Shown here piece after piece: positions 2,120-44,847 of a stretch of DNA of 56,597 nucleotides. The translations under genes were made by a program, and so were the position numbers. Source of the stretch: a virus (taxonomy: Duplodnaviria > Caudoviricetes); the IMG/VR virus record IMGVR_UViG_3300020470_005093, positions 1-56,597 of that record. One strand, 5' to 3'. The notes under the pieces were generated by a model. That model did no database searches and was not told where the DNA came from. It saw only the letters and a program-made list of their open reading frames with translations. Positions within the stretch are counted from its first letter, which is position 1, and each line of letters opens with the position of its first letter.

Positions 2120-2121
2120 AG

Positions 2122-4929: not shown

Positions 4930-6219
4930 CTATGTCGTAGTAACCCCCACAGTTGCTGCGAAACCAACAAATGATGCGCCTTCTTTTTTATATAAATTTT
5001 CAACATTAACATCTATCACGAAATTCCTACCAGCAATAACCGATTGTTGTTCCTCAACATCTCCTACAGTACCACCAGCACCAATCGTAGAAGCAATAGA
5101 AACAGTTATAGTGGATACTCCAGTTGTTCCTGATGGAGTAACTATTACGTTTCCTTGAGCAGGTGAAGTAATTATATCCTCAAATGGATAATTACGTACT
5201 CCTAATGTATAACCATATAATTCTGGAGCAGTTGTATTAGTATCAGTAATTATAATATTAAATGATCCACCAGCAACTACTTTAGTTGTACTTAATCCAA
5301 CAGTCTCACTTAAAGTTGGTCTGGTTTGTTCAACTAAAACACTCTTTGATCTCTCAAAAGTAACCACATCTCCAGTACCAATTCCAGATGAAATTGTAGA
5401 AGATAACGAAACTAACGGATGCTCAATTAGTCTTCTAAATTTAACAACGGCATCTGCATCTAAAGCAGATCCTATTGTAGATGCTAACGAAACTGTATTA
5501 TAAACAGTTCCACCAGCAGCAGCAGTTCCTACCCCAATAACTTTTTCAGAAATAGATCCAGACTCAAAAGTATCTCCTAATCCTATGTCTCCAATATCAT
5601 CAATTGCTATAGTACTTTGACCAACAGCTATATCATAACTCACAGCAGTTGTTTGTAGATCAATAATTGCATCTGTTTTAATACCTGCAACTGTACCAGT
5701 TATACTTCCTGTTTTTAATATATCACCAATCGAAACCTCACCAATATCATCTGTAGATATAATATCTGTTCCTACTCCACTAATTTCTCCTGTTTGAGTT
5801 GTATAAACCACAGTTGTTTCTGTACCATTTCCTACCCATGAAGTTGATCCTATTCCTAAAGGATCACTAAACTCAGGAATAAAAATATACACATCATCAG
5901 TAATTTCAGATTGTCCAGGTGCTAATGGCCAATCAGATTTAGCAAATTGATTAGGTGCTTTAGCATTTGATGGTAAATCACGCAATTTATCTCTATAGGT
6001 TGCCCATGCTGCTTTAGTAGTAGAATCTAATGCACCATCAGGAACTTGAGTCCAATCAGATGCTCCTAATGCACCATTTCTCCAATTTCTTAACTCATCA
6101 AGTCGTTGTTGTTTTGCACTTTCAAAAGCATCCATCTGCTCTTGCAATGATATCTGAGGATCTTTTGGACCCCCAGACTCAATTAACTCTCTTCCGTCTA
6201 CTGTAAAATGATGTCCCAT
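4930..6219 (-). CDS. tail-fibre assembly chaperone domain fused to Thr/Gly-rich beta modules
   Basis: LRNWRNGALGASDWTQVPD...WATYRDKLRDLP signature at the N-terminus. Confidence 0.7.
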   Translation of the reverse strand: MGHHFTVDGRELIESGGPKDPQISLQEQMDAFESAKQQRLDELRNWRNGALGASDWTQVPDGALDSTTKAAWATYRDKLRDLPSNAKAPNQFAKSDWPLAPGQSEITDDVYIFIPEFSDPLGIGSTSWVGNGTETTVVYTTQTGEISGVGTDIISTDDIGEVSIGDILKTGSITGTVAGIKTDAIIDLQTTAVSYDIAVGQSTIAIDDIGDIGLGDTFESGSISEKVIGVGTAAAGGTVYNTVSLASTIGSALDADAVVKFRRLIEHPLVSLSSTISSGIGTGDVVTFERSKSVLVEQTRPTLSETVGLSTTKVVAGGSFNIIITDTNTTAPELYGYTLGVRNYPFEDIITSPAQGNVIVTPSGTTGVSTITVSIASTIGAGGTVGDVEEQQSVIAGRNFVIDVNVENLYKKEGASFVGFAATVGVTTT

Positions 6220-6233
6220 TTTTTTAAATCTCC

Positions 6234-7166
6234 TTATTCGTATGCATCATTCGCATCTGGTGCTGATGATCCAGACCATACACCCACGTTAACTGGTAAG
6301 CAGCACGGCCAACCCCATATTGTCCAATTTGGTATTGGATGTGGTAGAGCAACATCACCACATGATGTGTTACCGTAACTACCACCAGCTAATGCTGACA
6401 TGAAGAAGCAATTAGCAAAGAAACATATTGCACAAACATAATTATTAGCCTTTTGATTTTTACTCCATGCCGTACATGCGTTGCAATATGGTATTCCCAT
6501 CATTCTATTACATTGTGCTGGAAAATCACTCCGCCAATAAGGATGCCCCATCCAACATAAATCCCACATCCAATCTGAGTTACAATTACAGTAAGGAGCA
6601 CGAGCACCTCCTGGAGCAGCTTCAAGTTTTAAATCAAACCATCCTAAATTATCCAATCCACTTTGACAATAGTAGCACCATTTTTGATCTGCTCCTATCG
6701 TACATCCACATGTCCTACATCTGCACCAATAACAAAAACAACAAGAACCCATTGGCCAATTATTACATGCACATATTAGCCAATAGGTTTGTTGGCAACA
6801 ACACATGCAACCATTACTACTGACTATTCCTGCACAGAAGTAGATATAACAACATGCTTTAATTCTTTGTCCTGCGAAACAAAATCTAAATCCTCTATAC
6901 TTATTAGTATCAAGATCAAACTTAAAACATCCATTTTCAAAACAATTTGTCCAACAGTTGCAATGACAAATTACAACGTAGCAATTATCAGTGGTTGGTA
7001 AGTAATTTAATGTAGGTCTACATGCAGGAGTTTTTAGATTTGTGCAAAACAGATCACAAACTGCCTTACATGCATATTGACATACTTCAGCAGGGGTAGG
7101 TCCACTTGCTCCTCCACCACCAACAGTTCCTCCAGATGCAGTTTTAGTGCTTACATAACGTGCCAT
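6234..7166 (-). CDS. Cys-rich putative virion/fibre protein
   Basis: 42 Cys in 310 aa (manual count); Gly-rich N-terminal linker. Confidence 0.7.
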   Translation of the reverse strand: MARYVSTKTASGGTVGGGGASGPTPAEVCQYACKAVCDLFCTNLKTPACRPTLNYLPTTDNCYVVICHCNCWTNCFENGCFKFDLDTNKYRGFRFCFAGQRIKACCYIYFCAGIVSSNGCMCCCQQTYWLICACNNWPMGSCCFCYWCRCRTCGCTIGADQKWCYYCQSGLDNLGWFDLKLEAAPGGARAPYCNCNSDWMWDLCWMGHPYWRSDFPAQCNRMMGIPYCNACTAWSKNQKANNYVCAICFFANCFFMSALAGGSYGNTSCGDVALPHPIPNWTIWGWPCCLPVNVGVWSGSSAPDANDAYE

Positions 7167-9901
7167 TAACCTTCATACCCCCATACTTGGAATGATATCT
7201 TACCAGCACCCGATGATCCATAGTTCTTAACGAAGATCTTATCACCATCACTTAGAACGACTCCCGTTCTTTCATATTGATTTATTGGTACGCATTGATC
7301 GATCATTCCTGCACAATCCATATTAGCAGTGAAACAATCACAACATCTATCGATACATGCAGGTGATGCCCTTAAGCAACAATATATGCATGGGTCTTGA
7401 CATGCGACCACAGTTCCTGGTAGTGATGACCAATTAACTAAGTCTTTTGTAGTAAATGCATCCCATCCACAAGTACAGCAGTTATAAAGACCTATACTCC
7501 ATGCACAATGCTCATATCTGAATAGACAAGATACACACATACGTGGTCTTGTATAGTAACTACATGTCCATTCTACTGGGAAGTTAGCTAACTTACAGAA
7601 GAACATAGAATTAATTCCAACTCCATCAGCATTCGGTACAGTATAACCAAACATAGTATCTTTACTAGGATGGTTATTAAGTCCAGAAGGATCTAATGGA
7701 ATCCATTGAGATGATTCAGCACCACCATAACTACCGTTACAACAAGACATATAACAATTTGCCATAGTTGCAGTATCACTACCACATGCACCACCAAGAC
7801 ATATACATCTTCGTTGCATACATGCATTAATACATTTCATATTAATTGAGAATATACCACATCCTGGATGAACTCCTCCACAGAAACTAGCAGTAGCAGG
7901 TCCAGTTCTTATCATCATATAATGACAATCACAACCTGGATGATAAGTAAAGTACTTAATAGGTAACTCAGTACCTGCGTATCGAGCACAATTAACACCA
8001 CCATCTCCACAAGAATATGTTTGTATATCAGGTCCGTATGCTAACCAAGTAGTATTTGGACAATCATAAACCCCACCAACATGCAATGTAAAGGTATTAT
8101 TGCACCAGTTACAATCTTGACAGCAACATTTGCAGAAACAATAACATGAATAGTGTGCTCCACCAATTCCATAAACAGCATTACAACAACTTATATGCCT
8201 CAACCACAGTTGTGCTCCACATGTCATCGCAGCCACAACACCATAAGGACTTATTGGACCACATGAAGAGTTTCTCATAAAGAAATTATTTCCTGTTCCA
8301 CAAGTAGGACAGAAATAAGAACAATGGCATGGTCTACACCAAATCATCTGTTCATTACTACCACATCCATTAACACACCACTGGTATTCAGTACCAGCGC
8401 ACAAACCTATTGTAGCAGTGGTGTAACAGAATTTACCACATTGGCTATTCCGATGACATGATTGACCACAATGTGCTTGACAACAATCAATACGTGTTAT
8501 AGGGTTACTCCATCTTGCTGTACAACAATCACACCTTTTAAATGGTGCAAAATGGAAGTATCCAGCTGGTGGTGTGCCTTTCGCTCCAATATAACCTTCA
8601 TAGTTAGTCAAGCCTAAGTAAGTTCCTGGAGTACATGAAGGACAACATGCACAATAACACATTGTCCATCCCTGTTGAACATGAGCAGTAGTTGCTACAC
8701 TAGAAACATCTTGATCACAATAACCATTATAATTAGCAAGACACATTAAGTTATACCAGTTATGCATAAAGAAACTTCCCCTCATTCCTGGATTCTCACC
8801 AGCACATTCGCTGAACCCAGCTTGAGTTCCTAATCTCATGTAGCATCTCTTACCACCTGGCATATAACAATTACAATAATTACACTTACAACAAACACAA
8901 TTATAAGGAACTGGGTTTGGAGTAGTAGGATTGCAACAAGATGATGTCCAACAACAAGGATTACTACCTGCACCCCAAGGTTTACAGAAGTAGTTACTTG
9001 GACAACCAGTTGGGTCTAGTTGCAATCTCTTTGCATCCCAACAAGATCCAATATGACAATGATTTACAACATATAGTTCTGGACCTTGCATCACATTATT
9101 ACAATAACTTTGACAACATCCACACATAAATCCTGGAAGTACTCCAACAAAAGCGGTTGCTGACATTATGCCACTAAAACACAACGCACAATTCTGTTTT
9201 GCTTGACATGCTGCACAATTACAGAACCAATTCCATCCTGGAAATACGTTAGTATTACCAACACCTAAATGAAGAGCAGTAATTTCAGTACCACCATAAT
9301 TACCTTTTACAAAGCAGCAATTCATGGGATTACCCCAACAACAACTACCTAAACATGTACAAACATTACAATATGGCCATTGCCATTTTTGACAACAATT
9401 AGCAGCAGTATTAGTACAATTTAAATCATTACGGCTATAAATTGTTCCAGCAGCACTTACAAATTCTGATGGATGTGGAATAGCTGTTCCTGATCCAAAA
9501 TAACTACATGTATTTGATAACTGACAACAACCAGTACATTGAGCATTATTAACACAACAGTGCAATCTCCACCAACCACATACACCTGCATCAGAAACTT
9601 CTGGTGTTGCACCATCAGTGCTCATATCCTCATTATACATCCATCCACTAAAGTTGCCCAAATTTCCAGCAACAGTAGTACCAACTCCAACACCAGTTGA
9701 AGTAAATAAAGTAGTTATTCCAGCCATTGCAGTTGTTGCCACACCAACAACAACAGATATTACTTGATTACTTGAAGTACTTAGAGAGTTTGCGAATAAA
9801 GTAACCGCATTTGACTTTCCAGAATCATTACTGTAAGCAATAAAATTACCAAAATCCGATTCTGTGTCTATTACCGTTCTGGTAAATCTTCCACTTGCCA
9901 T
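7166..9901 (-). CDS. large Cys-rich putative virion/fibre protein
   Basis: About 110 Cys in 911 aa (manual count); Cys-free termini; ends YERTGVVLSDGDKIFV...VWGYEG. Confidence 0.75.
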   Translation of the reverse strand: MASGRFTRTVIDTESDFGNFIAYSNDSGKSNAVTLFANSLSTSSNQVISVVVGVATTAMAGITTLFTSTGVGVGTTVAGNLGNFSGWMYNEDMSTDGATPEVSDAGVCGWWRLHCCVNNAQCTGCCQLSNTCSYFGSGTAIPHPSEFVSAAGTIYSRNDLNCTNTAANCCQKWQWPYCNVCTCLGSCCWGNPMNCCFVKGNYGGTEITALHLGVGNTNVFPGWNWFCNCAACQAKQNCALCFSGIMSATAFVGVLPGFMCGCCQSYCNNVMQGPELYVVNHCHIGSCWDAKRLQLDPTGCPSNYFCKPWGAGSNPCCWTSSCCNPTTPNPVPYNCVCCKCNYCNCYMPGGKRCYMRLGTQAGFSECAGENPGMRGSFFMHNWYNLMCLANYNGYCDQDVSSVATTAHVQQGWTMCYCACCPSCTPGTYLGLTNYEGYIGAKGTPPAGYFHFAPFKRCDCCTARWSNPITRIDCCQAHCGQSCHRNSQCGKFCYTTATIGLCAGTEYQWCVNGCGSNEQMIWCRPCHCSYFCPTCGTGNNFFMRNSSCGPISPYGVVAAMTCGAQLWLRHISCCNAVYGIGGAHYSCYCFCKCCCQDCNWCNNTFTLHVGGVYDCPNTTWLAYGPDIQTYSCGDGGVNCARYAGTELPIKYFTYHPGCDCHYMMIRTGPATASFCGGVHPGCGIFSINMKCINACMQRRCICLGGACGSDTATMANCYMSCCNGSYGGAESSQWIPLDPSGLNNHPSKDTMFGYTVPNADGVGINSMFFCKLANFPVEWTCSYYTRPRMCVSCLFRYEHCAWSIGLYNCCTCGWDAFTTKDLVNWSSLPGTVVACQDPCIYCCLRASPACIDRCCDCFTANMDCAGMIDQCVPINQYERTGVVLSDGDKIFVKNYGSSGAGKISFQVWGYEG

Positions 9902-9988: not shown

Positions 9989-10867
9989 TTATTTGGTTCT
10001 TGTTGTTCTACTCCCCCAACCAGAAGCAAAATAAGATGCAGAAGCATTACCACCTCCACCTCCACCACCACCAGCAATACTAACATCTACAGTAGTACCA
10101 TCTACAGCAAATGTATTACCAGCACCAACAAAGTTAAGGGTTTTAACTGGTGCTGTTGTTATAGCAGTTCCACCAGACTGAATACCAATATTAAATCCAC
10201 CAGTAGATGTAGTAACACCAGTAACAACAATTCCATCAGAATTAGTTACTACTCGATCTGATCCACCTACTTGAATTTTTAAACTACCAGTACCTGCATC
10301 ATTGATGAAAGAATTTCCAGAATCATGCCAGATCTGAAGATCTGCACCATCTCCCAGTTTTATTCGATCATTGTCACCCATGTTTAGATGACTAGTTACA
10401 GTAGCAACACCACTAATTGTTACGTTACCTGACAAATCAAATCGTGGAGCACCCGTCCCCATCTTCGCATAAGTAACACTTCCATCAGGTATAGTATTAA
10501 GTGTTAGATCTGTACCTAATATAATACCGAAAAATGATAATCCACTAATTGGGGCAGTAGTAAATGTAAGTTTAGTTCCTGCAACACTAAAATCCTGATT
10601 AGGATTCTGCATTACACCACCCAAACTAATCAACATCTGTTGACTGGTTACAGGAGAAACTCCAGCACCACCAACTGACATCGTAAATTCAGTTTCAGAT
10701 CCATCAAACCCAGAGGAAATATCATCTAATTCTCTAATATTAGCAACACGAGTTGTTGAAATACCAATACTTGTCCAGACAGTACCATTCCACTTATATG
10801 TAAAACCCGAACCACTATCCGAGTATTGTTGATTTACTGACGGGTTATCAGGAAAGTTAAGTGCCAT
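9989..10867 (-). CDS. tail fibre-like structural protein
   Basis: MALNFPDNP...YKWNGTVW start, GVMQNP/FTTAP module, poly-Gly. Confidence 0.75.
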   Translation of the reverse strand: MALNFPDNPSVNQQYSDSGSGFTYKWNGTVWTSIGISTTRVANIRELDDISSGFDGSETEFTMSVGGAGVSPVTSQQMLISLGGVMQNPNQDFSVAGTKLTFTTAPISGLSFFGIILGTDLTLNTIPDGSVTYAKMGTGAPRFDLSGNVTISGVATVTSHLNMGDNDRIKLGDGADLQIWHDSGNSFINDAGTGSLKIQVGGSDRVVTNSDGIVVTGVTTSTGGFNIGIQSGGTAITTAPVKTLNFVGAGNTFAVDGTTVDVSIAGGGGGGGGNASASYFASGWGSRTTRTK

Positions 10868-10895: not shown

Positions 10896-12629
10896 TTAAG
10901 CATTTAAATCTTTAGCTATAGGACCAGTCCACATCGTCGTAACATCTCTATCCATTGTCCAATTAGTATCACTACCAATTTGAACTGGTGAGGAATAGCA
11001 GCAAGTTAATGCCCACGATCCACACCCTAGTTGTCCTTGACAATTAGATCCACTTGCCCATAAGGTTCCATCACATTTTCTCCAATATCCCACCCTACAT
11101 TGAGGACTCATAAAATCAGAATATACTCCTGCTGAATGAATTTGTATAGGAGATGAATATTTTTGAGTAACACAAGTATTATTACCCCAAATTGCTTTGT
11201 CTTCAGAACCCCATCCCCAGAAAGATCCATCAGCTTTCTTTGCTATGGATAATTTATCCCAACTAGAATAGACATCTTGCCAATTAGTATCACTACCAAT
11301 TTGGACTGGTGATGAATATTTTATTACATTATTTTGCCCTAATTGTCCTTGAGAATTATCTCCCCATGCCCATAATGTACCATTTGTCCTAACCGCAATT
11401 GTTCCATAATTAGAATGTGCTACTTTACTCCAATTAGTGTCCGTTCCTATCTGGACTGGTACTGACATTGACGTTGTGTTATTAATTCCTAAATTTCCAT
11501 TAGGATTATATCCCCATGACCACATTGTTCCGTCACATTTAATCATCGTAACAAACTCACAATTTGATAATAATGCTTTAGGTGATGTAAATGATGCAGC
11601 AGTTCCTACTTGAGTTGGTGATGATTGTCTAGGATGTCCATGAGCATTAAGTCCTAATTCTCCATAATTTTGACCACCCCATGCCCATAAAGTGCCATCA
11701 GTTCTAACCGCGTGCATTCTTTCAGCGCAAAGCATTGGATAAACTTTATACCAATTATTTCCAGGCACTTGTACAGGTGATGACCAACAAACCCATGATA
11801 TTGGAGCAATACAAGGGTTTGCAAGTAATCCACATTCATTTTTACCCCATGTCCATAATGTTCCATCTAATTTTGTACCTGCTTTTCTTCCAATAGATCT
11901 CCAATTAGTATCACTACTCATCTGAACTGGAGATGAATACGCAGAAGGTTGACACCCTCCAATAGAAGTTCCTGTTTTCGCATTTAATGGTTTATTTTGA
12001 TTTGCTCTCCAATCATAAGTTTTAGGAGCAAGAAATGTAGAATACATATTCTTATGCCCCCACACAGAAGCAGTATATGATGCATTTCTACAAAATTGCT
12101 CATATCCTATCCATGTAGATCCACCATCTCTTGTTATTAAATTAAATATTTGAGCATCAGTAGTACTAATACTCGCACCCACTAATGTTGGAGCAGTTCC
12201 ACCTTTCCAATATACATTTGCTGGCCATGTAATTGTTCTATTATTATCATCTGCATTCTTCTTTCTAATAATACGAAGTTCTTGATTATTACCATCTGTA
12301 TTCGCAAATGCAACAGTTGTATTAACATTTTGAGTAAAAGTTATAACATTTCCACTACTTAAATTAATAGTTGTTGTTCCAGAAACAGCAGTTACATTTT
12401 GTGCAGTAAAAGGAGCTTTTGCAACTCCTGACATATTACTACCATCACCTACCATATTAGTAGCACAAATAGTACCAACATTTAAACAAGAGTTATTTGT
12501 TAATCCCGTAGCAGTTCCCGTAAAATCACCATGAAATCCAGCAGTAGATGTGACTACTCCCGTTATATTCATAGAAGGGAATGTTGTTACACCAATAGGA
12601 TGTATTAATTGTACTTTAGTTTGACTCAT
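10896..12629 (-). CDS. fibre/adhesin with RCC1/BLIP-II-like beta-propeller, paralog 1
   Basis: Repeated DGTLWxWGxNxxGxLG...SSPVQI...W; N-terminal fibre stalk and ITWPANVYW domain. Confidence 0.85.
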   Translation of the reverse strand: MSQTKVQLIHPIGVTTFPSMNITGVVTSTAGFHGDFTGTATGLTNNSCLNVGTICATNMVGDGSNMSGVAKAPFTAQNVTAVSGTTTINLSSGNVITFTQNVNTTVAFANTDGNNQELRIIRKKNADDNNRTITWPANVYWKGGTAPTLVGASISTTDAQIFNLITRDGGSTWIGYEQFCRNASYTASVWGHKNMYSTFLAPKTYDWRANQNKPLNAKTGTSIGGCQPSAYSSPVQMSSDTNWRSIGRKAGTKLDGTLWTWGKNECGLLANPCIAPISWVCWSSPVQVPGNNWYKVYPMLCAERMHAVRTDGTLWAWGGQNYGELGLNAHGHPRQSSPTQVGTAASFTSPKALLSNCEFVTMIKCDGTMWSWGYNPNGNLGINNTTSMSVPVQIGTDTNWSKVAHSNYGTIAVRTNGTLWAWGDNSQGQLGQNNVIKYSSPVQIGSDTNWQDVYSSWDKLSIAKKADGSFWGWGSEDKAIWGNNTCVTQKYSSPIQIHSAGVYSDFMSPQCRVGYWRKCDGTLWASGSNCQGQLGCGSWALTCCYSSPVQIGSDTNWTMDRDVTTMWTGPIAKDLNA

Positions 12630-12634
12630 TGTTT

Positions 12635-14431
12635 TTAACTAGATTTAAATGCCATAGAATTATTACAAAAAGTACCTAAACCACCACGAGGATTCCAATC
12701 AGTATCGGTTCCTACCTGAACTGGTGATGACCTTGCTGTTATACTATTTCCATTATCATTTACTCCATTGTTTCCTTGTTGATTCCATCCCCATGCCCAT
12801 AATGTACCATCAGTCTTAATACCAAGAGCAGCACATCCAGTACCAGAACTAGATAACCTAGCCCAATTACCAGGAAGATGGACTGGAGTTGTCCTTGTAG
12901 TAGTATCATTAAGTCCTAGCATTCCTCCTTGATTAGATCCCCATACAAACACACAATCATCACAATTTTTAGCCCAGAATGCTGACTTACCTAGAGCACC
13001 TACTGCAGTCCAATTACAACTAGTACCTATTCGAACTGGTGATGAATATGAAGTGCTTGTTGATGCATCAATCCCAAGTCCTCCGCAAGTATTAGAACCC
13101 CATGCCCATAATGCACCACCATTTGCAGTTGTAGATCTAATTCCAATTGAAGCATTTTCAGATCTAGTTACATCAGTCCAATATCCTCCACCACAAATTT
13201 GAACTGGTGTTGTAGCACAAGCTTCATTATCTTGACTTTTATTATTTCCCAAAACTCCTTCTAGAGAACTTCCCCACGACCATAATGTTCCATCAGTCTG
13301 GATTGCATGATATCCAATACCAGTTCCAGTATTAAGTGTTTTCCAATTATTAAAATTCCTATAACATACGGGAGTGCAGTTCTTCACCAAACAACTCTGT
13401 AAACAATACATATATTTTTGATCACACTCAAATCTTTGTCCACAATAGATTCGACCCCATGTCCATATTGATCCATCTCTTCCAATAGTAGCTCCTGACT
13501 GATACCCTCCAGATACTTGCAATACATCAGTACAATATCCACTAATAGTCCGTGATATTTGTACGGGAGATGAATATGGAGTAGATCTTGCTACACTAGT
13601 AGCATCTCCTCCAACACAACCAGCTAAAGCACCCTCATCTCCATAACCCTGACCCCAAAGAGATCCATCGCAACATATACCATAAAAATTATATCCAAAA
13701 TGATCAGTAGTTGCCCCTCTACAATTAGATAAATTATCTGCTCTAAAATATTTTTTTTCTCCTCCAATCAATACAGGTGAGGAACGTTTTCCATCAACAG
13801 TATTCCTTCCAAAAACTCCAGCAAAATCAGATCCCCAAATGTATCCAACAGCTGCTTGTGGATCATTTCTTACAGTTTCTTCAGCAACCCATAAATCTTT
13901 TGAATCATCATCTACTTGAGTAAAAGTAAATATTTGTTTAGCATCTTGTGAAGTATTAGATACTATACCAGGAGGTGAAGTTGGAGAATATACATCACCC
14001 CAAATTACATTTGATGGCCAAGTTATTGTTTTACCTTGCGTTGGAATTTTAATCTCCATTTCTATTTGCATGGTCCTAGTCTGACCTGTATTAGCAAATG
14101 AAACTGTAGAATCATGTAATGGTTTAAAAAATACTACATTACCCTTTGATATATCAAGTGTATGTGTTGCTCCTGATGTTACTGTAGTCTGACCTACTAA
14201 AGCAGGTGCTGCTGGCATATTACTTAAATTAGTTCCATCTCCTCGAAAAGAAGTGGCAGTTATAACACCTACACTTACTACAGAAGTACTAGCAGCAGCA
14301 ACTAGTCCCCCAACATTACCCGTTAAATTTCCAGTAAAAGAAGTAGCAGAAACCACTCCAGAATTAACCTTTATACTAGTAGCAGTAAAAGTTTCATTAG
14401 GGTCTATTAATTGTGCCTTCTTTTGACTCAT
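12635..14431 (-). CDS. fibre/adhesin with RCC1/BLIP-II-like beta-propeller, paralog 2
   Basis: Same architecture; DGTLWAWG and SSPVQ repeats. Confidence 0.85.
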   Translation of the reverse strand: MSQKKAQLIDPNETFTATSIKVNSGVVSATSFTGNLTGNVGGLVAAASTSVVSVGVITATSFRGDGTNLSNMPAAPALVGQTTVTSGATHTLDISKGNVVFFKPLHDSTVSFANTGQTRTMQIEMEIKIPTQGKTITWPSNVIWGDVYSPTSPPGIVSNTSQDAKQIFTFTQVDDDSKDLWVAEETVRNDPQAAVGYIWGSDFAGVFGRNTVDGKRSSPVLIGGEKKYFRADNLSNCRGATTDHFGYNFYGICCDGSLWGQGYGDEGALAGCVGGDATSVARSTPYSSPVQISRTISGYCTDVLQVSGGYQSGATIGRDGSIWTWGRIYCGQRFECDQKYMYCLQSCLVKNCTPVCYRNFNNWKTLNTGTGIGYHAIQTDGTLWSWGSSLEGVLGNNKSQDNEACATTPVQICGGGYWTDVTRSENASIGIRSTTANGGALWAWGSNTCGGLGIDASTSTSYSSPVRIGTSCNWTAVGALGKSAFWAKNCDDCVFVWGSNQGGMLGLNDTTTRTTPVHLPGNWARLSSSGTGCAALGIKTDGTLWAWGWNQQGNNGVNDNGNSITARSSPVQVGTDTDWNPRGGLGTFCNNSMAFKSS

Positions 14432-14452
14432 TAGAATATTATTTTTAAATAT

Positions 14453-16231
14453 TTAGCAAGTTACTGAAATAGCCGCATGATGGCAAAAACTACCAGATAC
14501 TCCACCAAATTTTCTATCATTCATAATCTGAACTGGTGAAGATACTCTTTTATTAGCACAACAGCAATTTATACCACGTTTACCATCTTGATTAGATCCC
14601 CATGTCCATAGTCTTCCGCAACAATCTACTGCAGCTGCAGAATCTCCAGCAAGATGAAGACATTGTATATAATCACCACCCATTGTACGAACTGGTGAAG
14701 AAACACCTCCACTAGTACAACTTTGATTTTCTGATACGTTACAACCTATTACTCCAGATGAATGACTACCCCACATCCATAATTCATTAGATCCTTTTAA
14801 TCCTGCACCATTATATTCTCCACCCCAAACACACTTCCAATCAGTATCGGTTCCTACTTGTCTAGGAGAACAAGGAAATCCAGCTTGTCCATTTGCCCAT
14901 GAAGAATTGCCAGTTTGACCATAATGACCACAACCCCATGAATATAATTTTCCATCATGTGTAACTCCTAATGAACCTGATTGCATCATTGCAATAGCTT
15001 TCCAACAAAGAGCTGCACAAACTTTAGCTGGTTGAGATTTATTATTAATACTAGTTCCAAGTTGTCCTGCTGATCTTTGTGCTTGATAATTCCTACCAAA
15101 TCCCCATAATGTTCCACAATTATCTATAGCAAGAGCACCATCTTGACCAAACGAAAGACATTTCCATCTATATCCAATACAATGGCATATTTGAATTGGT
15201 ACTGAATAAGAAGACTCCCTATTATTACCTAGTTGTCCACTTCCACCATTACCCCATGTCCACATTGTTCCATTCTGTTTAATTGCTCCTGCTGTAGCTG
15301 CATGTCCAGCATTTGTATTACCAAGAGATTGCCAATCACTATCAATTCCTATCTGAACTGGTGATGATCTACTAATAGAGTGGTCTTCATTCGTTCCAAG
15401 AACTCCTTGAGTATTCTGCCCCCATGACCATAATGTTCCATCCTTTTTAAGACCTAAAGCATAATAATGTCCCCATTGTATATCTTTAAAATCACTATAT
15501 GGATTACAACCACTCATCCATGAAGCTCCAATAGAAACTGGTGATGAATACTTACTACACTCAGCACAGCTGCCATCTCCACCTCCCCATTGGGCGTTCA
15601 TTCCAAACCATCCTTTCCTATGCTCCCATCCCCATGCCCACACATTAGTAGTACTTGGATCTGAACGAACTGTTTCACTTCCATACCAACTTGCACCAGA
15701 ATTTGTAGTAAGTAAAGTTATTTCTTGAACATTATTACATCTTGGATTAAAAATACTATCAGGTTTTTGTCCGTCTCCTTCCCAAGTAATATTCGAAGGC
15801 CAATTAAGATATATTTCACAGTTACATCGAGCACATATAGGTTTTCTAACAATTCTTACCTCACCACTTCCAGTAGAAGTATTGGAAAATCCTACTGTAG
15901 CAGTTCCATTAAAACCACCATCCTCAATATGAACTACATTACCCTTTGATAAATCAATAGTATATGTTGCTGCAGATGTAAACGAAGTAGTTTGTCCAAT
16001 ATATGATGTTCCCGCCAATCCTGTTATTCCCGCTCCACTTCCTCTATATGTGGTTGCTGTTACAATAGCACCAACTACATTAGGACTGCCCGTTAAATTA
16101 GTAGCTGTACCCGTAGTATTTCCTTCAAAACCAGTAGCAGTTACAACTCCAGTTACATTAATTCCTCCACCAAACTCTATATGTCCTGCAACTGAAGGGT
16201 CTACTAATTGTGCTCTTGGTAACTTAGCCAT
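14453..16231 (-). CDS. fibre/adhesin with RCC1/BLIP-II-like beta-propeller, paralog 3
   Basis: Same architecture; DGTLWSWG and SSPVQI repeats. Confidence 0.85.
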   Translation of the reverse strand: MAKLPRAQLVDPSVAGHIEFGGGINVTGVVTATGFEGNTTGTATNLTGSPNVVGAIVTATTYRGSGAGITGLAGTSYIGQTTSFTSAATYTIDLSKGNVVHIEDGGFNGTATVGFSNTSTGSGEVRIVRKPICARCNCEIYLNWPSNITWEGDGQKPDSIFNPRCNNVQEITLLTTNSGASWYGSETVRSDPSTTNVWAWGWEHRKGWFGMNAQWGGGDGSCAECSKYSSPVSIGASWMSGCNPYSDFKDIQWGHYYALGLKKDGTLWSWGQNTQGVLGTNEDHSISRSSPVQIGIDSDWQSLGNTNAGHAATAGAIKQNGTMWTWGNGGSGQLGNNRESSYSVPIQICHCIGYRWKCLSFGQDGALAIDNCGTLWGFGRNYQAQRSAGQLGTSINNKSQPAKVCAALCWKAIAMMQSGSLGVTHDGKLYSWGCGHYGQTGNSSWANGQAGFPCSPRQVGTDTDWKCVWGGEYNGAGLKGSNELWMWGSHSSGVIGCNVSENQSCTSGGVSSPVRTMGGDYIQCLHLAGDSAAAVDCCGRLWTWGSNQDGKRGINCCCANKRVSSPVQIMNDRKFGGVSGSFCHHAAISVTC

Positions 16232-16261: not shown

Positions 16262-17053
16262 TTATTTATCTTTAATATAATCCTCCACTGTTTTAAACTT
16301 ATAATCACCCCATTCTTTTTTAGCACGAGTGTATTCTTGATACTTACCTTCTAAGTGCTTTGGAAATGGTATATATTCTATCGTACCATTATATTTCTCT
16401 GCTACTAGTTCTCCTACTTCTTGAAAACTAATAGGATTGCTTGTTCCTAAATCATAGATACCTGATGGTTTATCATTATTCAATACAATATCCACAACAT
16501 CATCTACACATATAAAGTCTCTAAGGTATCTATCAGACCCCTTAAATAATTTAAGTGTTCCTGTCTCTTTAATTTGTTTAGTAAATTTATGCACAGGACT
16601 TGCTTGATCCTCCTTATGATCTTCACCTTCTCCATAGACATTAAAGTACCTAAATCCTTGTATTAATTCAAATCTATCCATATTATCTAAAACCCAATAG
16701 TCCATGATGACTTTGGATATAGCATAGTAGTTAAGTGGATTGATTAAGTTCTCTTTATTAAGATGTCCATAGACTGATGCTGATGATGCATACTTAATTG
16801 GTATTTTATATCTGATTGCTTGCTCAAATAACCATTGACTAAACTCAACATTAAAATGATTGATTGCCTTTAGATTGGTGCAAGTGGTATCAGAAATTGC
16901 ACCTTGATGTAGTATGAGTTCTACCTTATGCCACTCATTAAAAGTACGAAAGTGCCAACTGTTTCTTTTTTCAACTTTAACTACTTCTTTTCCTGATAAT
17001 TTTTCAAGAAACTTTTTCCCTATAAACCCCTCATCACCTGTTAGTATAATCAT
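16262..17053 (-). CDS. hldD: ADP-L-glycero-D-manno-heptose-6-epimerase
   Basis: TGDEGFIG, HQGAISDTT, YASSASVYG, PLNYYAISK, RYFNVYGEGEDHK. Confidence 0.9.
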   Translation of the reverse strand: MIILTGDEGFIGKKFLEKLSGKEVVKVEKRNSWHFRTFNEWHKVELILHQGAISDTTCTNLKAINHFNVEFSQWLFEQAIRYKIPIKYASSASVYGHLNKENLINPLNYYAISKVIMDYWVLDNMDRFELIQGFRYFNVYGEGEDHKEDQASPVHKFTKQIKETGTLKLFKGSDRYLRDFICVDDVVDIVLNNDKPSGIYDLGTSNPISFQEVGELVAEKYNGTIEYIPFPKHLEGKYQEYTRAKKEWGDYKFKTVEDYIKDK

Positions 17054-17055
17054 AG

Positions 17056-17433
17056 TTAATCACCTTTAAATATTCTGTATGAATCTTCATCAAAATGTTG
17101 AGTAGAAAATTCAAATAATTCAGTATCACTCAATGCAATCATTTGATGTCTCAATCCTCTATAAACATAAAATTTATCTCCAGGTTCTAATATAGTAGTT
17201 TTTGCTTTCGAAAGATCATCAGTATCACCATAAAATAAATGAATCTTTCCAGATTGAATATAAAATGTTTCGTCTTTTAATTTATGATAGTGCCATGAAC
17301 ATCTCTTATTCTTCCTAATAAACAAAAGCTTGCCACAATACTCTGGAGAATTGGCAATCCATTTCTCAAATCCCCATCCTTTTTTTACGTATTTAATTTC
17401 TGAAGAAGTCATCACAATTGATTCCTTTGTCAT
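17056..17433 (-). CDS. cupin, sugar-phosphate isomerase-like
   Basis: KGWGFEKWI, SWHYHKLKDETFY, RHQM, EFST. Confidence 0.75.
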   Translation of the reverse strand: MTKESIVMTSSEIKYVKKGWGFEKWIANSPEYCGKLLFIRKNKRCSWHYHKLKDETFYIQSGKIHLFYGDTDDLSKAKTTILEPGDKFYVYRGLRHQMIALSDTELFEFSTQHFDEDSYRIFKGD

Positions 17434-17731
17434 CTATGAATAGATCTGCATGAGGTTTACCCATAATCAATTCGTTATACTTACAACCCCAATCATCTAA
17501 TTGTTGTTTTGTAAGATCAAATAAAGCTGCCTCTGCTGATACAGATGCTATAGAATGAGGTTGATCAGAAAATCTACCCATTGCTCGTGCAGTGAAATAG
17601 ATTATGTAATTACCCTCATCGTAAAGTTTATTTAGTACCTTGATCCTATCCTGCCAAGGTTCTGCTTTATGGTAATCTCTACCTACAGTAGGTGTACAAA
17701 TTGTACCATCAATATCAACACAATATCTCAT
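17393..17731 (-). CDS. HAD phosphatase (capsule-biosynthesis type)
   Basis: VDIDGTI, YFTAR, GKPHADLFIDDK. Confidence 0.8.
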   Translation of the reverse strand: MRYCVDIDGTICTPTVGRDYHKAEPWQDRIKVLNKLYDEGNYIIYFTARAMGRFSDQPHSIASVSAEAALFDLTKQQLDDWGCKYNELIMGKPHADLFIDDKGINCDDFFRN

Positions 17732-18443
17732 TTATATCCTCCTTTGTTAATACATAAGTTCCTGCATGTGATACAGCAATTGCTGCTGCTTTATTTGCAT
17801 AAGGGATTGCAGTCTCTATTGATTTAGTTTGTATATAACCAACAACTAATGCTGCAAGGAAAGTATCACCTGCACCAGCAACATCAAAGACGTTTACTTT
17901 CTCTGCTGGATATAATTTGCCTTGATACTCTGCACCTTTCCCACCTCTAGTTATAATCAAATTATCTGTTGGTGTTTTTAAATTCTCATATTCAATATCA
18001 TTTACTTTAGTAAAGCATCCATGAGGTATTTCTTGCTTTTTAGTGTCAACAAATACTGGACCTTGAAAAGAATAAACTATCTCGAATAATTTCTCTTGTG
18101 TTATGAATCCTTTGTTATAATCTGATATAACAAGAGCATCATAATTATCTTCTGGTTTTTCAAACTTTAATTCTTCAACCTCATATTCTTCATCGACACG
18201 AAGAATTTGTTGATTTGATTTCTTATCAATATATCTAGTCTTTACAATCTCCTCCTCTTGAGTAATCATATCAACTTCAGCACCAAAAGCATTTAGATTA
18301 TTGAAAACATTCCATGCCATTCCCTCCGTTTTAGTTGTCCTAATATAATTTAACACAGGAACAGGTGCTTCTGGACTCAACCGTTTGGCATCACCATAAA
18401 CATATTTGTCAATACAACTATCACCAATTAACAATATTTTCAT
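17715..18443 (-). CDS. hldA: D-glycero-D-manno-heptose-7-phosphate kinase (RfaE/HldE domain I)
   Basis: RLSPEAPVPV, SDYNKG, DVAGAGDTF PfkB motif. Confidence 0.9.
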   Translation of the reverse strand: MKILLIGDSCIDKYVYGDAKRLSPEAPVPVLNYIRTTKTEGMAWNVFNNLNAFGAEVDMITQEEEIVKTRYIDKKSNQQILRVDEEYEVEELKFEKPEDNYDALVISDYNKGFITQEKLFEIVYSFQGPVFVDTKKQEIPHGCFTKVNDIEYENLKTPTDNLIITRGGKGAEYQGKLYPAEKVNVFDVAGAGDTFLAALVVGYIQTKSIETAIPYANKAAAIAVSHAGTYVLTKEDINEILC

Positions 18444-18841
18444 AGGTTCTGTATTTTCTTAACTGTTTTACTACTAGCATAACCTCCCACTCTTGGAAGA
18501 AATCTTGTTTCCATAGCATATTCCCAACCAACTACATCACCATCCCTCCAATCATCACCAAGTAATAGTATATCAGGTTCATATAATTGAATCAAGCCTT
18601 CTAATTCTTTTCTGTCACAAAACGTCAACACAACATCAATATACTTGATTGCCTCAAGCATTGCAACTCTATACTTTAAATCATTGATAGGTTTATGATC
18701 ACCTTTATCCTTTTTTATCTTCTCATCAGTATCCGTGGCAACAATAACCTTATCACCCAGTGATCTTGCAACTTTAAAAAGTTCTATATGACCTGGATGT
18801 AGAATATCAAATGTTCCATTAGTCCATACAATTTTAGACAC
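18440..18841 (-). CDS. hldC: heptose-1-phosphate adenylyltransferase (RfaE/HldE domain II)
   Basis: WTNGTFDILHPGH nucleotidyltransferase motif; adjacent to hldA. Confidence 0.85.
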   Translation of the reverse strand: MSKIVWTNGTFDILHPGHIELFKVARSLGDKVIVATDTDEKIKKDKGDHKPINDLKYRVAMLEAIKYIDVVLTFCDRKELEGLIQLYEPDILLLGDDWRDGDVVGWEYAMETRFLPRVGGYASSKTVKKIQNL

Positions 18842-19586
18842 GATAAACCTCGTCTACAGTTACCATACTTGCCCTCTTGTTGATGATTCTATTCACTTCA
18901 GGATCATCTTTCTGTTCCTCAGTAGGAATATAAATTGCCTTTGAATTTATAGGACAATTTTTTACAGGATCAGTTAGATAATAAACTGCTATACTCTTTC
19001 TGTAACACTTCTCAGGACACTCTAAAGGAGTGGGTAATCCATGATATGAGTTTTGTGTCGTATCAAAAATTACAGCACGATTAAACAAAGTATCAATAGA
19101 AGTTACACATTCTTTTCTATCTGCTGACCAGAATTCTAATTGACCTTTCCACTCAGGATTCCAGTTCTCTGCAAGATAAACAATAAGATTTAACTTCCGT
19201 TGGAGTTTCAGTTTAGGATGTATAGAATAATCAAGATGTATGTTAAGTTTACCACCTTTTTCATGTATATGCAACCCTCCACCATGCAAACCAACATCAG
19301 GATAGAGTTTCTTAATACCAGTAATTTTTTTTAACTTAGATATAAATGTAGGTGAATTTAAATAGCAAAATGTAGAATATAAATTTCTAGGAAACAAATT
19401 CCATACGTTACATGTCTTTTTATTTTCTAATGGATTATCATATACATACCAGACATCAGAATTATAATCAGGAAACTCACGACTTAATGATATAGCAGTC
19501 TCCTCATCAAAAAAATTATCTATAACTGCATGATGAAATGGTTTTCCTGAAGTAAACTCATTTTTTAATTTGAGTTGATTAATCAT
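18834..19586 (-). CDS. 2OG-Fe(II) oxygenase
   Basis: GGGLH, HLD, YHG and RKS motifs. Confidence 0.9.
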   Translation of the reverse strand: MINQLKLKNEFTSGKPFHHAVIDNFFDEETAISLSREFPDYNSDVWYVYDNPLENKKTCNVWNLFPRNLYSTFCYLNSPTFISKLKKITGIKKLYPDVGLHGGGLHIHEKGGKLNIHLDYSIHPKLKLQRKLNLIVYLAENWNPEWKGQLEFWSADRKECVTSIDTLFNRAVIFDTTQNSYHGLPTPLECPEKCYRKSIAVYYLTDPVKNCPINSKAIYIPTEEQKDDPEVNRIINKRASMVTVDEVYRV

Positions 19587-21602: not shown

Positions 21603-22264
21603 TTCAATATCTCCTCACACTTATCATAAAAGTAAGTATTATATACATTTTCTCGACTAGAAAATAAATGAAAGAACATCTCAACACCTAAAGAATTTTC
21701 AAATGTAGTTCCAATACCATAACTACCACGACCCTTCCCAAGATTCCATTTACCACCAAAAGGATCTCTGATATAAGATTTTGGCATGAATATCTCAACT
21801 TCTACTCCTTGCTCCTCTGCATCATAAGTATAATATTCACATGTATCTGCTCTAATATGATCAGGAGCAAATGATCTTCTACCAAACTTATCATAGTTGG
21901 TTCTGTTTATACAGAAACATGAAGATCCAACAAACATATGCTCATCGTTATCAATGTGCATAGATCGTTGAGCATTACCAATTATAATATTCTTCTCTGC
22001 TTGCGTAAAGATATAATCTAATGCATAAGAATTTAATGGTATACAATCAACATCTAAAAACAATACACTATCATATCCTTCTTCAAATAAAGCAGATGCA
22101 CCATAATCAAGTGCTTGATAATGTATTATTTGATCTTCTCCCACTTTACAGAATAATGGTTTATAATCTGCAACAGTATTATATTTCTGTAATACTCTTT
22201 GATGCAAAAATAGAAGGTTTTTATCTATAGCATCATTATAATATGTAAGTATAGCTCTTTTCAT
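21599..22264 (-). CDS. putative GT-A glycosyltransferase
   Basis: LFLDVDCIPL DxD motif. Confidence 0.6.
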   Translation of the reverse strand: MKRAILTYYNDAIDKNLLFLHQRVLQKYNTVADYKPLFCKVGEDQIIHYQALDYGASALFEEGYDSVLFLDVDCIPLNSYALDYIFTQAEKNIIIGNAQRSMHIDNDEHMFVGSSCFCINRTNYDKFGRRSFAPDHIRADTCEYYTYDAEEQGVEVEIFMPKSYIRDPFGGKWNLGKGRGSYGIGTTFENSLGVEMFFHLFSSRENVYNTYFYDKCEEILK

Positions 22265-23550
22265 TAGAAATCTTTCATAAAATCATGTAATTTTTCAATC
22301 GTCTTATCCCAACCATTATACTCCATTTGTTGAATAACGACAACATTATCAGGATACCAAGTATTTTCTTTAACATTCCACGTTATATATGGCACTAAAG
22401 GAGGAAGAACAACAACCTTTGCTCCCATTGCACCAGCAAGATGTGCAACTGCGGTACATGATGTAACTACTAAATCAGACTCAGCAATAACATCATATGT
22501 ATCACACCAATCATGAATCAAATGAGAAAGATCCCATACATTTGCATTCTTAGGAAGATTACTATCCTCTATTTGCAACGAAAACAATTGTCCATACTTC
22601 TCAAGTCCCAATAAACCCTCAACAGGAACACTTCTAAATTGTTCATGTTCGAATTGAGGATTACCTCTCCATCTAATACATATCTTTTTCTTACCATTAG
22701 CAATCCTATTCATCTCATCAACGGGATTTGCTTTCCTCTTTAAGTATGGGAAAGTTACTCCTTCACGAGGATGATTTAACCCTAGAAAATATGGAGCAGA
22801 CATAGCAGGTACATATTTGTCCCAACCAGTCTTTGTAATATATTCAGGTGTATATACATTCTCATATCCACATTCTTCTAATAAAGGTATTAATGATTTG
22901 GGTGCAAATATCTTTACTGTCTTACAATATTTTTTAAAATTTTCTACATAACGAACAAATATCATTCCATCACCCATACCTCCTTCAAGATAAAAAGCAA
23001 TCGTATCTACTGTCTCACCATTCCACCTATACTGCTCACCTATATTATAATCCTTCCTCAGTATCCACTCATGACCCCATACTCTTAATTCATCACTAGC
23101 ACCTGCACGAATATACTTATATCCTTCTTGTAATTTATCTTCTGCTAATAGATACCATCCATAATTAAATGAAGCACGCGCATTAGTATCTGCAATCGGT
23201 GCTAAAATTTCTCTAGATTTATCAAATTTACCTTGTGCATTTAAATATAAAGACAAGTCTATTTTATGACCATCATCAAATGTCGGAAGAGATCTCATAA
23301 TCTCTTCTGCTTCATGTGCTCTATGTAAAAAATATAAACAACTAGCTTTATTAACAAGAAGATGAGGTGTTTCTGGCAATTTATCCAAACATTCTAAAGT
23401 TTTATCAAACTTTTTATCTTCATAGTAGGTTCCAGCTAAAAGACCTAGAATTTGCTCATCTTCCTCATGATTCAAATAAGCAATAGCAAGTTTTTGTGCT
23501 GCAGCAAATTCCTTTGCGTCATACAACTCATTAATTAATTGTGGTATCAT
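22264..23550 (-). CDS. TPR-containing GT9-like glycosyltransferase
   Basis: N-terminal helical repeats; EGGMGDGMIFVRY; DLVVTSCTAVAHLAGAMG. Confidence 0.8.
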   Translation of the reverse strand: MIPQLINELYDAKEFAAAQKLAIAYLNHEEDEQILGLLAGTYYEDKKFDKTLECLDKLPETPHLLVNKASCLYFLHRAHEAEEIMRSLPTFDDGHKIDLSLYLNAQGKFDKSREILAPIADTNARASFNYGWYLLAEDKLQEGYKYIRAGASDELRVWGHEWILRKDYNIGEQYRWNGETVDTIAFYLEGGMGDGMIFVRYVENFKKYCKTVKIFAPKSLIPLLEECGYENVYTPEYITKTGWDKYVPAMSAPYFLGLNHPREGVTFPYLKRKANPVDEMNRIANGKKKICIRWRGNPQFEHEQFRSVPVEGLLGLEKYGQLFSLQIEDSNLPKNANVWDLSHLIHDWCDTYDVIAESDLVVTSCTAVAHLAGAMGAKVVVLPPLVPYITWNVKENTWYPDNVVVIQQMEYNGWDKTIEKLHDFMKDF

Positions 23551-36636: not shown

Positions 36637-36905
36637 TAGTCGTCGTAAACTTTACATTCTGCTGCATCTGGATGATTATCACAATAGACCTCTAGATGTG
36701 AATCCTCGTGTCTGGTGTGCCAATCATTTATCTTTCCATCATTTGAATTTACTTCTGATTCATCATGAGCATGAAATGCATCATTGTGCATTTTCAAATC
36801 CTCTTCACTATACTCGTGCATACCATGATTGATATGCTCCTTACCATCTTTAGGATCTAGGTAAACCTCATGGTTTAAATCGTGATTTGGAGTTTTAGTA
36901 GTCAT
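36636..36905 (-). CDS. His-rich protein with CP12 C-terminal motif
   Basis: LEVYCDNHPDAAECKVYDD matches the CP12 C-terminal disulfide loop; 12 His. Confidence 0.75.
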   Translation of the reverse strand: MTTKTPNHDLNHEVYLDPKDGKEHINHGMHEYSEEDLKMHNDAFHAHDESEVNSNDGKINDWHTRHEDSHLEVYCDNHPDAAECKVYDD

Positions 36906-44406: not shown

Positions 44407-44847
44407 ATGGCAGAGAGTATTAAGAGTAGGTACAAACCAGAAAACCCCAGAAAATACAAAGGAGACTATAAAAACATTATATGTCGAAGTAGTTGGGAAA
44501 GAAAATTTTGCAGATGGTGTGACCTCAACGAAAGTATTTTAGAATGGGGCAGTGAAGAATTTTTTATACCTTATCGTGCTCCTGATGGTAAGGTTCGTAG
44601 ATACTTTCCAGATTTTATTATGAAAGTAAAAGAAAGTAACGGTCAAGTAAAAACTTATGTAATTGAAGTTAAACCACTAAAACAAACAAAACCACCAAAG
44701 AAAAAGAAAAGAGTTACTAAATCATACATATATGAATGCACTACATATGCAGTCAATCAAGCAAAATGGAAAGCAGCAGATGAATGGTGTAAGGATCATA
44801 AAATAGAATTTAAAATCATTACCGAAAAAGAATTAGGTATTAATTAA
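44407..44847 (+). CDS. gp4: head completion nuclease
   Basis: PENPRKYKGD...RSSWE...RYFPDF...IEVKP...NQAKW. Confidence 0.92.
   Translation: MAESIKSRYKPENPRKYKGDYKNIICRSSWERKFCRWCDLNESILEWGSEEFFIPYRAPDGKVRRYFPDFIMKVKESNGQVKTYVIEVKPLKQTKPPKKKKRVTKSYIYECTTYAVNQAKWKAADEWCKDHKIEFKIITEKELGIN

Follow-up and report, generated by a model that had tools for sequence, protein, structure and literature searches.

Missing cysteine depletion in the predicted RCC1-propeller fibre proteins of a putative marine cyanophage lineage

Which hosts a phage can infect is determined by its fibres, and marine cyanophages contribute greatly to the mortality of Prochlorococcus and Synechococcus. The locus described here raises the question of why three adjacent genes, predicted to encode fibre proteins with RCC1 propellers, specify so many cysteines (Cys). 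It lies in a stretch of 56,597 nt (IMG/VR record IMGVR_UViG_3300020470_005093), hereafter the window, a 56.6-kb fragment that is estimated to cover ~27% of its genome. T4-like baseplate, tube and fibre genes and the cyanophage hallmarks CP12, PhoH, ThyX, a gp59-like loader and a gp32-like single-stranded DNA-binding protein, as annotated with Pfam and PHROG, identify its predicted source as an uncultured marine T4-like cyanomyovirus. The answer that emerges is that the usual penalty on Cys is absent in the three RCC1 fibres of a lineage in which adjacent fibre proteins rely on this residue. The three genes are the following.

10896..12629, minus strand: RCC1 fibre paralog 1, 577 aa with 17 Cys (2.9%), a stalk of ~190 aa followed by an RCC1 propeller
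12635..14431, minus strand: RCC1 fibre paralog 2, 598 aa with 19 Cys (3.2%), including a loop insert with 6 Cys in one blade (residues 330-356)
14453..16231, minus strand: RCC1 fibre paralog 3, 592 aa with 26 Cys (4.4%), of which four are in the stalk (133, 136, 138 and 165) and 22 in the propeller

How unusual these numbers are becomes apparent when they are set against other RCC1 proteins. In 112 remote homologs, the mean Cys content is 0.43% and the maximum 2.19%. At a rate of 0.43%, 17 of 577, 19 of 598 and 26 of 592 residues have Poisson probabilities of 1e-9 to 8e-18. Relative to the remote homologs the enrichment is ~10-fold, which rises to 20- to 30-fold against the 23 homologs that have both the stalk N-terminus and the propeller in common with the window proteins, and which contain 0-4 Cys each (mean 0.14%). 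Similarly low values were found for 776 blades excised from the remote homologs (160 Cys in 39,365 residues, 0.41%) and for 149 representatives retrieved by an exhaustive RCC1 search (mean 0.34%). Nor are the other virion proteins of the window rich in Cys. They are nearly devoid of it, with 0-0.9% observed vs 2.7-4.2% expected from base composition, and its baseplate and tube proteins are Cys-free.

The enrichment is shared by all the orthologs found of the three paralogs. For paralog 2 these are eight proteins (P0278-P0285; 71-90% identity) with 16-22 Cys, or 2.7-4.1%, and for paralog 3 seven proteins (P0002-P0008; 67-84% identity) with 3.7-4.8% Cys. The ortholog of paralog 3 in viral contig L001 (10001-11607) is split into two overlapping open reading frames (ORFs) of 311 and 254 aa, owing either to a frameshift or to faulty assembly. 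For paralog 1 there are two orthologs: P0153 (84% identity, 18 Cys), the only useful one in a search of protein representatives that was dominated by giant multi-repeat RCC1 proteins, and a gene of metagenome locus L038 (3869-5638) with 14 Cys. Locus L038 is syntenic with the window, and encodes all three RCC1 paralogs (22, 18 and 14 Cys), a Cys-free fibre protein and two extremely Cys-rich proteins of 914 aa (112 Cys) and 308 aa (40 Cys) that correspond to the pair flanking the RCC1 genes in the window (see below). Among the loci compared, RCC1 blades carry Cys only beside such a Cys-rich pair, i.e. in the window and L038, and RCC1 proteins in loci without the pair within reach have 0-2.6% Cys. 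A link to the Cys-rich neighbours, which the first-pass annotation of the window had proposed, is therefore borne out in the form of co-occurrence. Two loci with RCC1 proteins of >2% Cys, L016 and L018, were considered as a second case of Cys-rich RCC1 proteins and rejected, since their Cys sit in non-RCC1 C-terminal domains, outside the blades; the RCC1 protein in L018 has 3.4% Cys, and its neighbour with 5.2% is unrelated to the Cys-rich pair of the window. The enrichment is thus confined to one phage lineage. A tree of the stalks leaves undecided whether it arose once or repeatedly, as the best topology requires two changes in Cys state, while the well-supported branches force one only. In the literature searched, which did not extend to subscription journals, neither RCC1 phage fibres enriched in Cys nor the Cys-rich pair were found to be described.

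An idea of what these proteins are came from profile searches and modelling. The RCC1 repeat family PF00415 was detected in paralogs 1, 2 and 3 in 4, 2 and 4 stretches, respectively, with 102.6, 65.2 and 73.9 bits (cut-off 21.7), while the scores with PF25390 (99.8-131.2 bits) fall under its cut-off of 150. Structure prediction covers one of them, paralog 3, for which an AlphaFold2 monomer model (m145affe1f776) has a propeller with a predicted local distance difference test score (pLDDT) of ~90 from residue 195 onwards and a stalk scoring <50. In Foldseek searches, this model matched the RCC1-like domain of HERC2 (3kci/7q40) with a target template modelling (TM) score of 0.83-0.86 and an E-value of 1e-27, as well as the seven-bladed domains of UVR8 and RCC1. 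The three genes, whose products are 25-28% identical to each other, are accordingly predicted to encode paralogous virion fibre proteins, each with an N-terminal stalk and a seven-bladed RCC1 propeller, the latter modelled in the case of paralog 3. Their assignment as fibres stems from the match of the first ~175 residues of paralog 1 to tail-fibre PHROGs 7760 and 9017 (E-values of 4e-8 and 7e-8), from their position between baseplate/fibre genes and a gene for a Phage_tail_APC chaperone, and from the homologs sharing the stalk. The RCC1 propeller probably serves as a binding module. The window proteins have repeat family and seven-bladed fold in common with RCC1-like domains (HERC2, UVR8 and RCC1, including PDB entries 4dnw and 1a12, and phrog_4219, 7220 and 16766), and the blade consensus K-T-D-G-T-L-W...G-Q-L-G...S-S-P-V-Q with bacterial and phage homologs. 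They differ from these domains in being 7- to 30-fold richer in Cys, which are located within the blades.

Where exactly do these Cys lie? The first-pass annotation had pointed to Cys replacing Thr, Ser and other small residues at equivalent positions of the repeats, in different blades of each paralog, and both observations hold. The motifs that it quoted are all present in the translations: RTDGTLW, KCDGTMW, KCDGTLW, GTICATN and GINNTTS in paralog 1, ICCDGSLW, KNCDDCVFVW, KTDGTLW and GVITATS in paralog 2, and DNCGTLW, DCCGRLW and GINCCCA in paralog 3. A blade hidden Markov model was built and all 62 Cys of the three paralogs were mapped on it. The stalks account for seven. Of the 55 in the propellers, 19 belong to the long loop joining strand D to the next strand A, or to inserts in it, five are in A-B loops, four in C-D turns, two in strand B and two inserted at strand A, the remaining 23 being in propeller segments too divergent to align. 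The 24 Cys on consensus columns replace T (8), S (6), D (4), G (3), N (2) and R (1), so that T or S is replaced at 14 of 24, vs a 32% share of the consensus (P=0.007), and columns 4, 16, 34 and 41 of the blade alignment are hit repeatedly, in blades that differ from paralog to paralog. A loop location is also apparent in the model of paralog 3, where 19 of the 22 propeller Cys are outside strands defined by DSSP though 40% of the residues are in strands (P=0.007). The strand-B residues C358, C467 and C524 of this protein and its invariant Cys are probably buried structural residues. Local pairs such as CxxC and Cx7C exist in the RCC1 paralogs, and the stalk of paralog 3 contains a CxxCxC...C cluster (residues 133-165), absent from paralogs 1 and 2, of which positions 133, 138 and 165 are invariant in 7/7 orthologs and 136 in 6/7 (with one Cys-to-Tyr change). 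This cluster might bind a metal or lock a trimer.

The genes downstream of the RCC1 paralogs provide the context for what follows.

9989..10867, minus strand: Cys-free fibre protein, 292 aa with 0 Cys, matching tail-fibre PHROG 18673 (E-value 1e-21); its gene separates the RCC1 genes from the Cys-rich pair
7166..9901, minus strand: ultra-Cys-rich protein, 911 aa with 111 Cys (12.2%), without Pfam or PHROG family
6234..7166, minus strand: ultra-Cys-rich protein, 310 aa with 42 Cys (13.5%), without Pfam or PHROG family
4930..6219, minus strand: tail-fibre assembly chaperone-like protein, 429 aa with 0 Cys, matching Phage_tail_APC (PF16778, 53.2 bits, cut-off 26.6) and tail-fibre assembly PHROGs; it ends the fibre block

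The Cys-rich pair at 6234-9901 stands out even more than the RCC1 fibres do. Both proteins are three-fold enriched in Cys relative to the expectation from base composition. Among all residue types of the 911-aa protein, Cys ranks first in conservation, with 95 of 111 invariant vs 64% of residues overall, and in the 310-aa protein 39 of 42 are kept in the L038 ortholog. The two proteins clearly use Cys functionally. Their family is narrow: apart from six clusters for the 911-aa protein, with 11.2-13.1% Cys, it comprises L038 and a distant pair in L042, which includes a distant homolog of the 310-aa protein (290 aa, 31 Cys). No relatives of the 911-aa protein were found in viral contigs by single-protein or alignment search, the ESM Atlas had no usable neighbours for it (best score 0.78) or for the 310-aa protein (whose own model has a pLDDT of 0.23), and a PDB sequence search with the latter gave chance-level matches only. 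The Cys-free fibre protein that separates the pair from the RCC1 genes is 94% identical to its L038 ortholog.

Taken together, the location of the RCC1 Cys in loops, their Cys-rich neighbours and precedents in two other phages lead us to favour, tentatively, facultative and position-flexible disulfide staples or cross-links as the most likely use of these residues. Upon release of the virions into oxic seawater, loop Cys would oxidize to facultative disulfides, which may be short loop staples and possibly links that join fibre subunits to each other or to the Cys-rich neighbours. The fibres would thereby be stiffened or tethered with no single bond being essential. In the RCC1 loops, the density of Cys is maintained while their positions drift. 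That the enrichment is kept in every ortholog found, and that L038 has the three paralogs together with both ultra-Cys-rich proteins, is consistent with this scenario. As for the precedents, fibres of cyanophage Pam3 are 'sporadically' disulfide-bonded to the wedge (PMC9942802), and Agrobacterium phage Milano has a disulfide-cross-linked particle, the structural proteins of which are Cys-enriched and contain 2.4% Cys (PMC10491603). In both phages, tail or fibre parts use Cys for covalent links. The cases differ in that enrichment in the window is limited to a five-gene distal-fibre block, reaches 12-13.5% in two of the proteins and involves, in the RCC1 paralogs, positions that are not conserved. 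Such flexibility has a parallel in the ultralong CDR H3 knobs of bovine antibodies, in which non-canonical Cys, variable in number and position, form changeable disulfides in hypervariable loops on a constant scaffold. By analogy only, both would combine variable Cys with variable binding loops, in exchange with residues one mutation away (Y, S and G). Fold and organism are unrelated, however, the phage has no counterpart of somatic mutation (no diversity-generating retroelement), and its disulfides are putative.

Several observations weigh against the facultative disulfides. The Cys content of the RCC1 paralogs (2.95, 3.18 and 4.39%) shows no excess over that expected from the base composition of their genes (3.18, 3.65 and 3.60%), which makes positive selection unnecessary as an explanation. 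When the 20 residue types are ordered by invariance, Cys comes only 12th, 17th and 16th in the three RCC1 proteins, under the average residue. Odd Cys counts are found in several sequences (17 and 19 in the window; 27, 27 and 17 in orthologs), and a branch-parity test, of low power with 3-8 sequences per family, detected no excess of even-numbered changes (16 odd branches vs a null mean of 14.7, P=0.80). The Cys are only weakly clustered in sequence, with P-values per protein that range from 0.01 to 0.88. Finally, no thiol oxidase or isomerase was found in the 56.6-kb fragment, which encodes an ordinary glutaredoxin only.

Measured against base composition, the anomaly is hence not an excess of Cys. 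It is the absence of a Cys depletion that RCC1 homologs show, as do the remaining virion proteins encoded in the window. This brings in neutral tolerance, a somewhat unlikely alternative in which selection against Cys has been relaxed, whether by low-oxygen water, by glycan-shielded loops or by a folding context peculiar to the lineage, and the residues have no function of their own. The match to base composition, conservation below average, the absent parity signal and a share of evolutionary events that would fit a residue changing at average rate (detailed below) are all as expected if Cys is tolerated. They fit mere tolerance as well as they fit the selection for surface thiols that had been proposed from the sequence at first sight, and that claim is not sustained. 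Tolerance seems more difficult to reconcile with a concerted shift in three paralogs of so little mutual identity, kept across orthologs down to 67% identity, when 23 out of 23 homologs of the same architecture are almost Cys-free. The invariance of 11 of the 26 Cys in paralog 3 and the functional use of Cys in the adjoining proteins also speak against it. In this one lineage, the usual strong avoidance of Cys in virion surface proteins seems to have been lifted, or mildly reversed, for the distal-fibre module as a whole.

The way in which the Cys evolve sets the RCC1 proteins apart from their neighbours. Between the window and L038, 65, 68 and 59% of the RCC1 Cys are kept vs 68-72% identity for non-Cys residues, and the corresponding values for the two neighbours are 89 and 93% vs 72 and 83%. 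When all orthologs are considered, invariant Cys amount to 11/26 in paralog 3 (51% for all residues), 9/19 in paralog 2 (58%) and 9/17 in paralog 1 (68%). On parsimony trees, gains and losses of Cys account for 8.6, 5.8 and 7.0% of all inferred substitutions in the RCC1 paralogs and 8.9% in the 911-aa family. The share in the RCC1 paralogs is about twice the Cys frequency, as it would be for an average-rate residue, whereas ~25% would be expected on that basis in the 911-aa family.

Disulfide Cys are normally the most conserved residues of a protein, as is the case for Cys in the 911-aa neighbour. Obligate intramolecular structural disulfides of the propellers are consequently an improbable explanation of these patterns: Cys is not among the most conserved residues, its counts are often odd, and its gains and losses are not paired. 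Since conservation is low, counts are odd and turnover is unpaired, most of the RCC1 Cys would not be obligate structural disulfides or fixed ligands, as far as can be judged from the alignments. Cys positions moreover differ between paralogs, and Cys-free homologs adopt the same domain. On the other hand, eight Cys columns of paralog 3 are invariant in 8/8 orthologs and three more in the seven that cover them, around half of the Cys are invariant in paralogs 2 and 1, and several local pairs exist (CxxC and Cx7C). The initial statement that the Cys are not conserved structural disulfides thus stands for the majority, given their below-average conservation, odd counts and lack of parity, while this conserved subset speaks against it. 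Anecdotal patterns of paired change, by contrast, favour the facultative disulfides. In paralog 1, C357 and C365 are jointly present in two sequences and jointly absent in L038, and C226 and C511 are both restricted to the window; in paralog 2, the two orthologs that lack C330 have acquired C263, and the three that lack C405 have acquired C438; in paralog 3, C497 and C505 co-vary with a loop indel. Some of these resemble partner switching or paired gain.

Could the loop Cys instead stay reduced? Selected reactive thiols at the surface, which would trap a component of the host surface covalently or by thiol-disulfide exchange, or metal sites would explain why density is maintained while positions drift, since a function that depends on number fits such drift better than fixed bonds do. 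The propeller, which is likely a binding module, indeed has its Cys concentrated in variable loops. The conserved Cys cluster in the stalk of paralog 3 and recurring Cys-His neighbours, with the Cys-adjacent H350 and H526 being invariant, go in the same direction. We nevertheless consider this unlikely. By general chemistry free thiols are short-lived in oxic seawater, canonical metal-site spacings are absent from the propellers, and ligands would be expected to be conserved, which most of the Cys are not. It is doubtful, too, that the density of loop Cys is itself under selection, either as a field of reactive thiols that, by thiol-disulfide exchange, would become covalently attached to the ultra-Cys-rich tip proteins or to some component of the host surface, or as a set of S-heptosylation sites.

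The last suggestion derives from the surroundings of the fibre block, which has sugar genes on both sides. A GmhB-like phosphatase and a NodU-like carbamoyltransferase are encoded at 1427-3909 (minus strand), and an epimerase, a kinase, an adenylyltransferase, a 2-oxoglutarate-Fe(II) oxygenase and glycosyltransferases at 16262-23550 (minus strand), upstream of the RCC1 genes. Two entries matter here.

16262..18841, minus strand: heptose-nucleotide pathway-like genes (epimerase, cupin, small haloacid dehalogenase (HAD) phosphatase, PfkB kinase and adenylyltransferase), directly upstream of the RCC1 genes
22264..23550, minus strand: predicted glycosyltransferase of 428 aa with a putative tetratricopeptide repeat (TPR) + GT-B architecture, likely the 'GT9' of the first-pass annotation; homologs in L001, L003-L007, L010, L015, L016, L020, L021, L024, L025, L027, L035 and L043

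The best NCBIfam matches of the genes at 16262-18841 are heptose_epim, rfaE_dom_I and rfaE_dom_II, all under the curated cut-offs. The 428-aa enzyme has an N-terminal TPR array and matches the GT9 family PF01075 with 13.1 bits, under the cut-off of 22, and its AlphaFold2 model (pLDDT 86) consists of a TPR domain and Rossmann-like domains. Foldseek relates this model to SPINDLY, OGT, XcOGT and the heptosyltransferase TibC (4rb4/4rap) with low TM scores of 0.3-0.44, and a profile search of PDB sequences returned TPR proteins only. A TPR + GT-B architecture is what the enzyme would have in common with TibC/AAH, OGT and SPINDLY, and its gene adjoins heptose-nucleotide pathway-like genes; it differs from them by its sub-threshold GT9 match and is not specific to the Cys-rich lineage.

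It was on the basis of this neighbourhood that a thiol-directed modifying enzyme had been invoked, and S-linked heptose acceptor sites for the TPR + GT-B enzyme are the form in which the idea can be evaluated. Apart from the embedding of the fibre block in a heptose-like cluster and the resemblance to SPINDLY, OGT and TibC, it draws on the genomic position of homologs of the enzyme, which in 14 of 33 viral loci are no more than 10 kb away from RCC1 fibre genes, often with GT25-like and heptose-pathway-like genes. It can also draw on the replacement of T or S at 14 of 24 consensus positions and on the residues with which Cys exchanges in the five Cys-bearing proteins between the window and L038. 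Asn is the commonest of these (15 of 58 non-gap exchanges, P=1.5e-5 vs composition), followed by Y (8), S (7) and T (5). T, S and N are, however, simply the commonest loop residues, and the Asn excess may reflect Asn-rich loops only. An exchange between Asn and Cys needs two base changes, for which Tyr and Ser are one-step intermediates.

The comparison proposed in the first-pass annotation, of Cys content in homologs with and without the GT9/heptose cluster, could be made, and the cluster does not track Cys. In L003, L011 and L021 the same heptose-like genes are found beside 11 RCC1 proteins with 0-0.8% Cys, and in L043 close homologs of the glycosyltransferase set are found beside three RCC1 proteins with 0.5-0.8% Cys. 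In L042 (MH319759.1, 6037-13161) the heptose genes are directly followed by a Cys-free fibre gene and a pair rich in Cys (9.6 and 10.7%), without RCC1 genes. Because the cluster adjoins Cys-poor RCC1 fibres and, in L042, no RCC1 genes at all, it does not predict Cys content, and Cys enrichment is independent of it. With the low fold similarity and the sub-threshold GT9 match added, S-heptosylation of the Cys is improbable. RCC1 phage fibres in general may be glycosylated, with no special relation to Cys. L042 is also an example of the Cys-rich pair occurring in the absence of RCC1 fibres. As no RCC1 genes separate the heptose genes there from the Cys-free fibre gene and the pair, the three RCC1 paralogs look like a cassette inserted between epimerase and fibre gene in the lineage of the window.

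There remains the question of whether the Cys codons are what they seem. An artefact (wrong frame or alternative code) or programmed hypermutation to Cys codons by a diversity-generating retroelement might be suspected from the over-represented Asn-to-Cys exchange, since both of its base changes are at adenines. We regard this as scarcely credible, because the ORFs are intact, RCC1 is detected in frame, orthologs come from several independent assemblies and the changes are spread over entire proteins. A retroelement was searched for in the window and rejected: there were 0 RVT_1 matches at E<=1 and no template-like repeat, and the only repeats were those of the blades at 60-82% identity.

The facultative disulfides thus remain our preferred, if tentative, reading of the RCC1 loop Cys, and the locus suggests that a phage lineage builds host-binding gear with a sulfur chemistry not yet understood. 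A whole distal-fibre module has switched from near-zero to high Cys, with strict conservation in two proteins and drift in three. How virion proteins that are folded in a reducing cytoplasm, and then act outside the cell, can make use of sulfur chemistry or tolerate it is here the subject of a natural experiment, to which the contrast in conservation between neighbours offers a clear testable handle. If the thiols are cross-linking or reactive, they would introduce a redox-dependent element into adsorption and particle stability at sea, and if density of Cys is what matters, this would be a chemistry of phage adhesins not described so far. If Cys is merely tolerated, the question becomes what in this lineage removes its usual penalty.

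Two small ORFs elsewhere in the window complete the description.

36636..36905, minus strand: small ORF with a CP12 domain, between baseplate-hub genes
44407..44847, plus strand: TnsA-like endonuclease ORF (PF08722, 86 bits), on the opposite strand amid baseplate genes

The first would be a cyanophage auxiliary gene, which supports a cyanobacterial host. The second is possibly a mobile or homing element.

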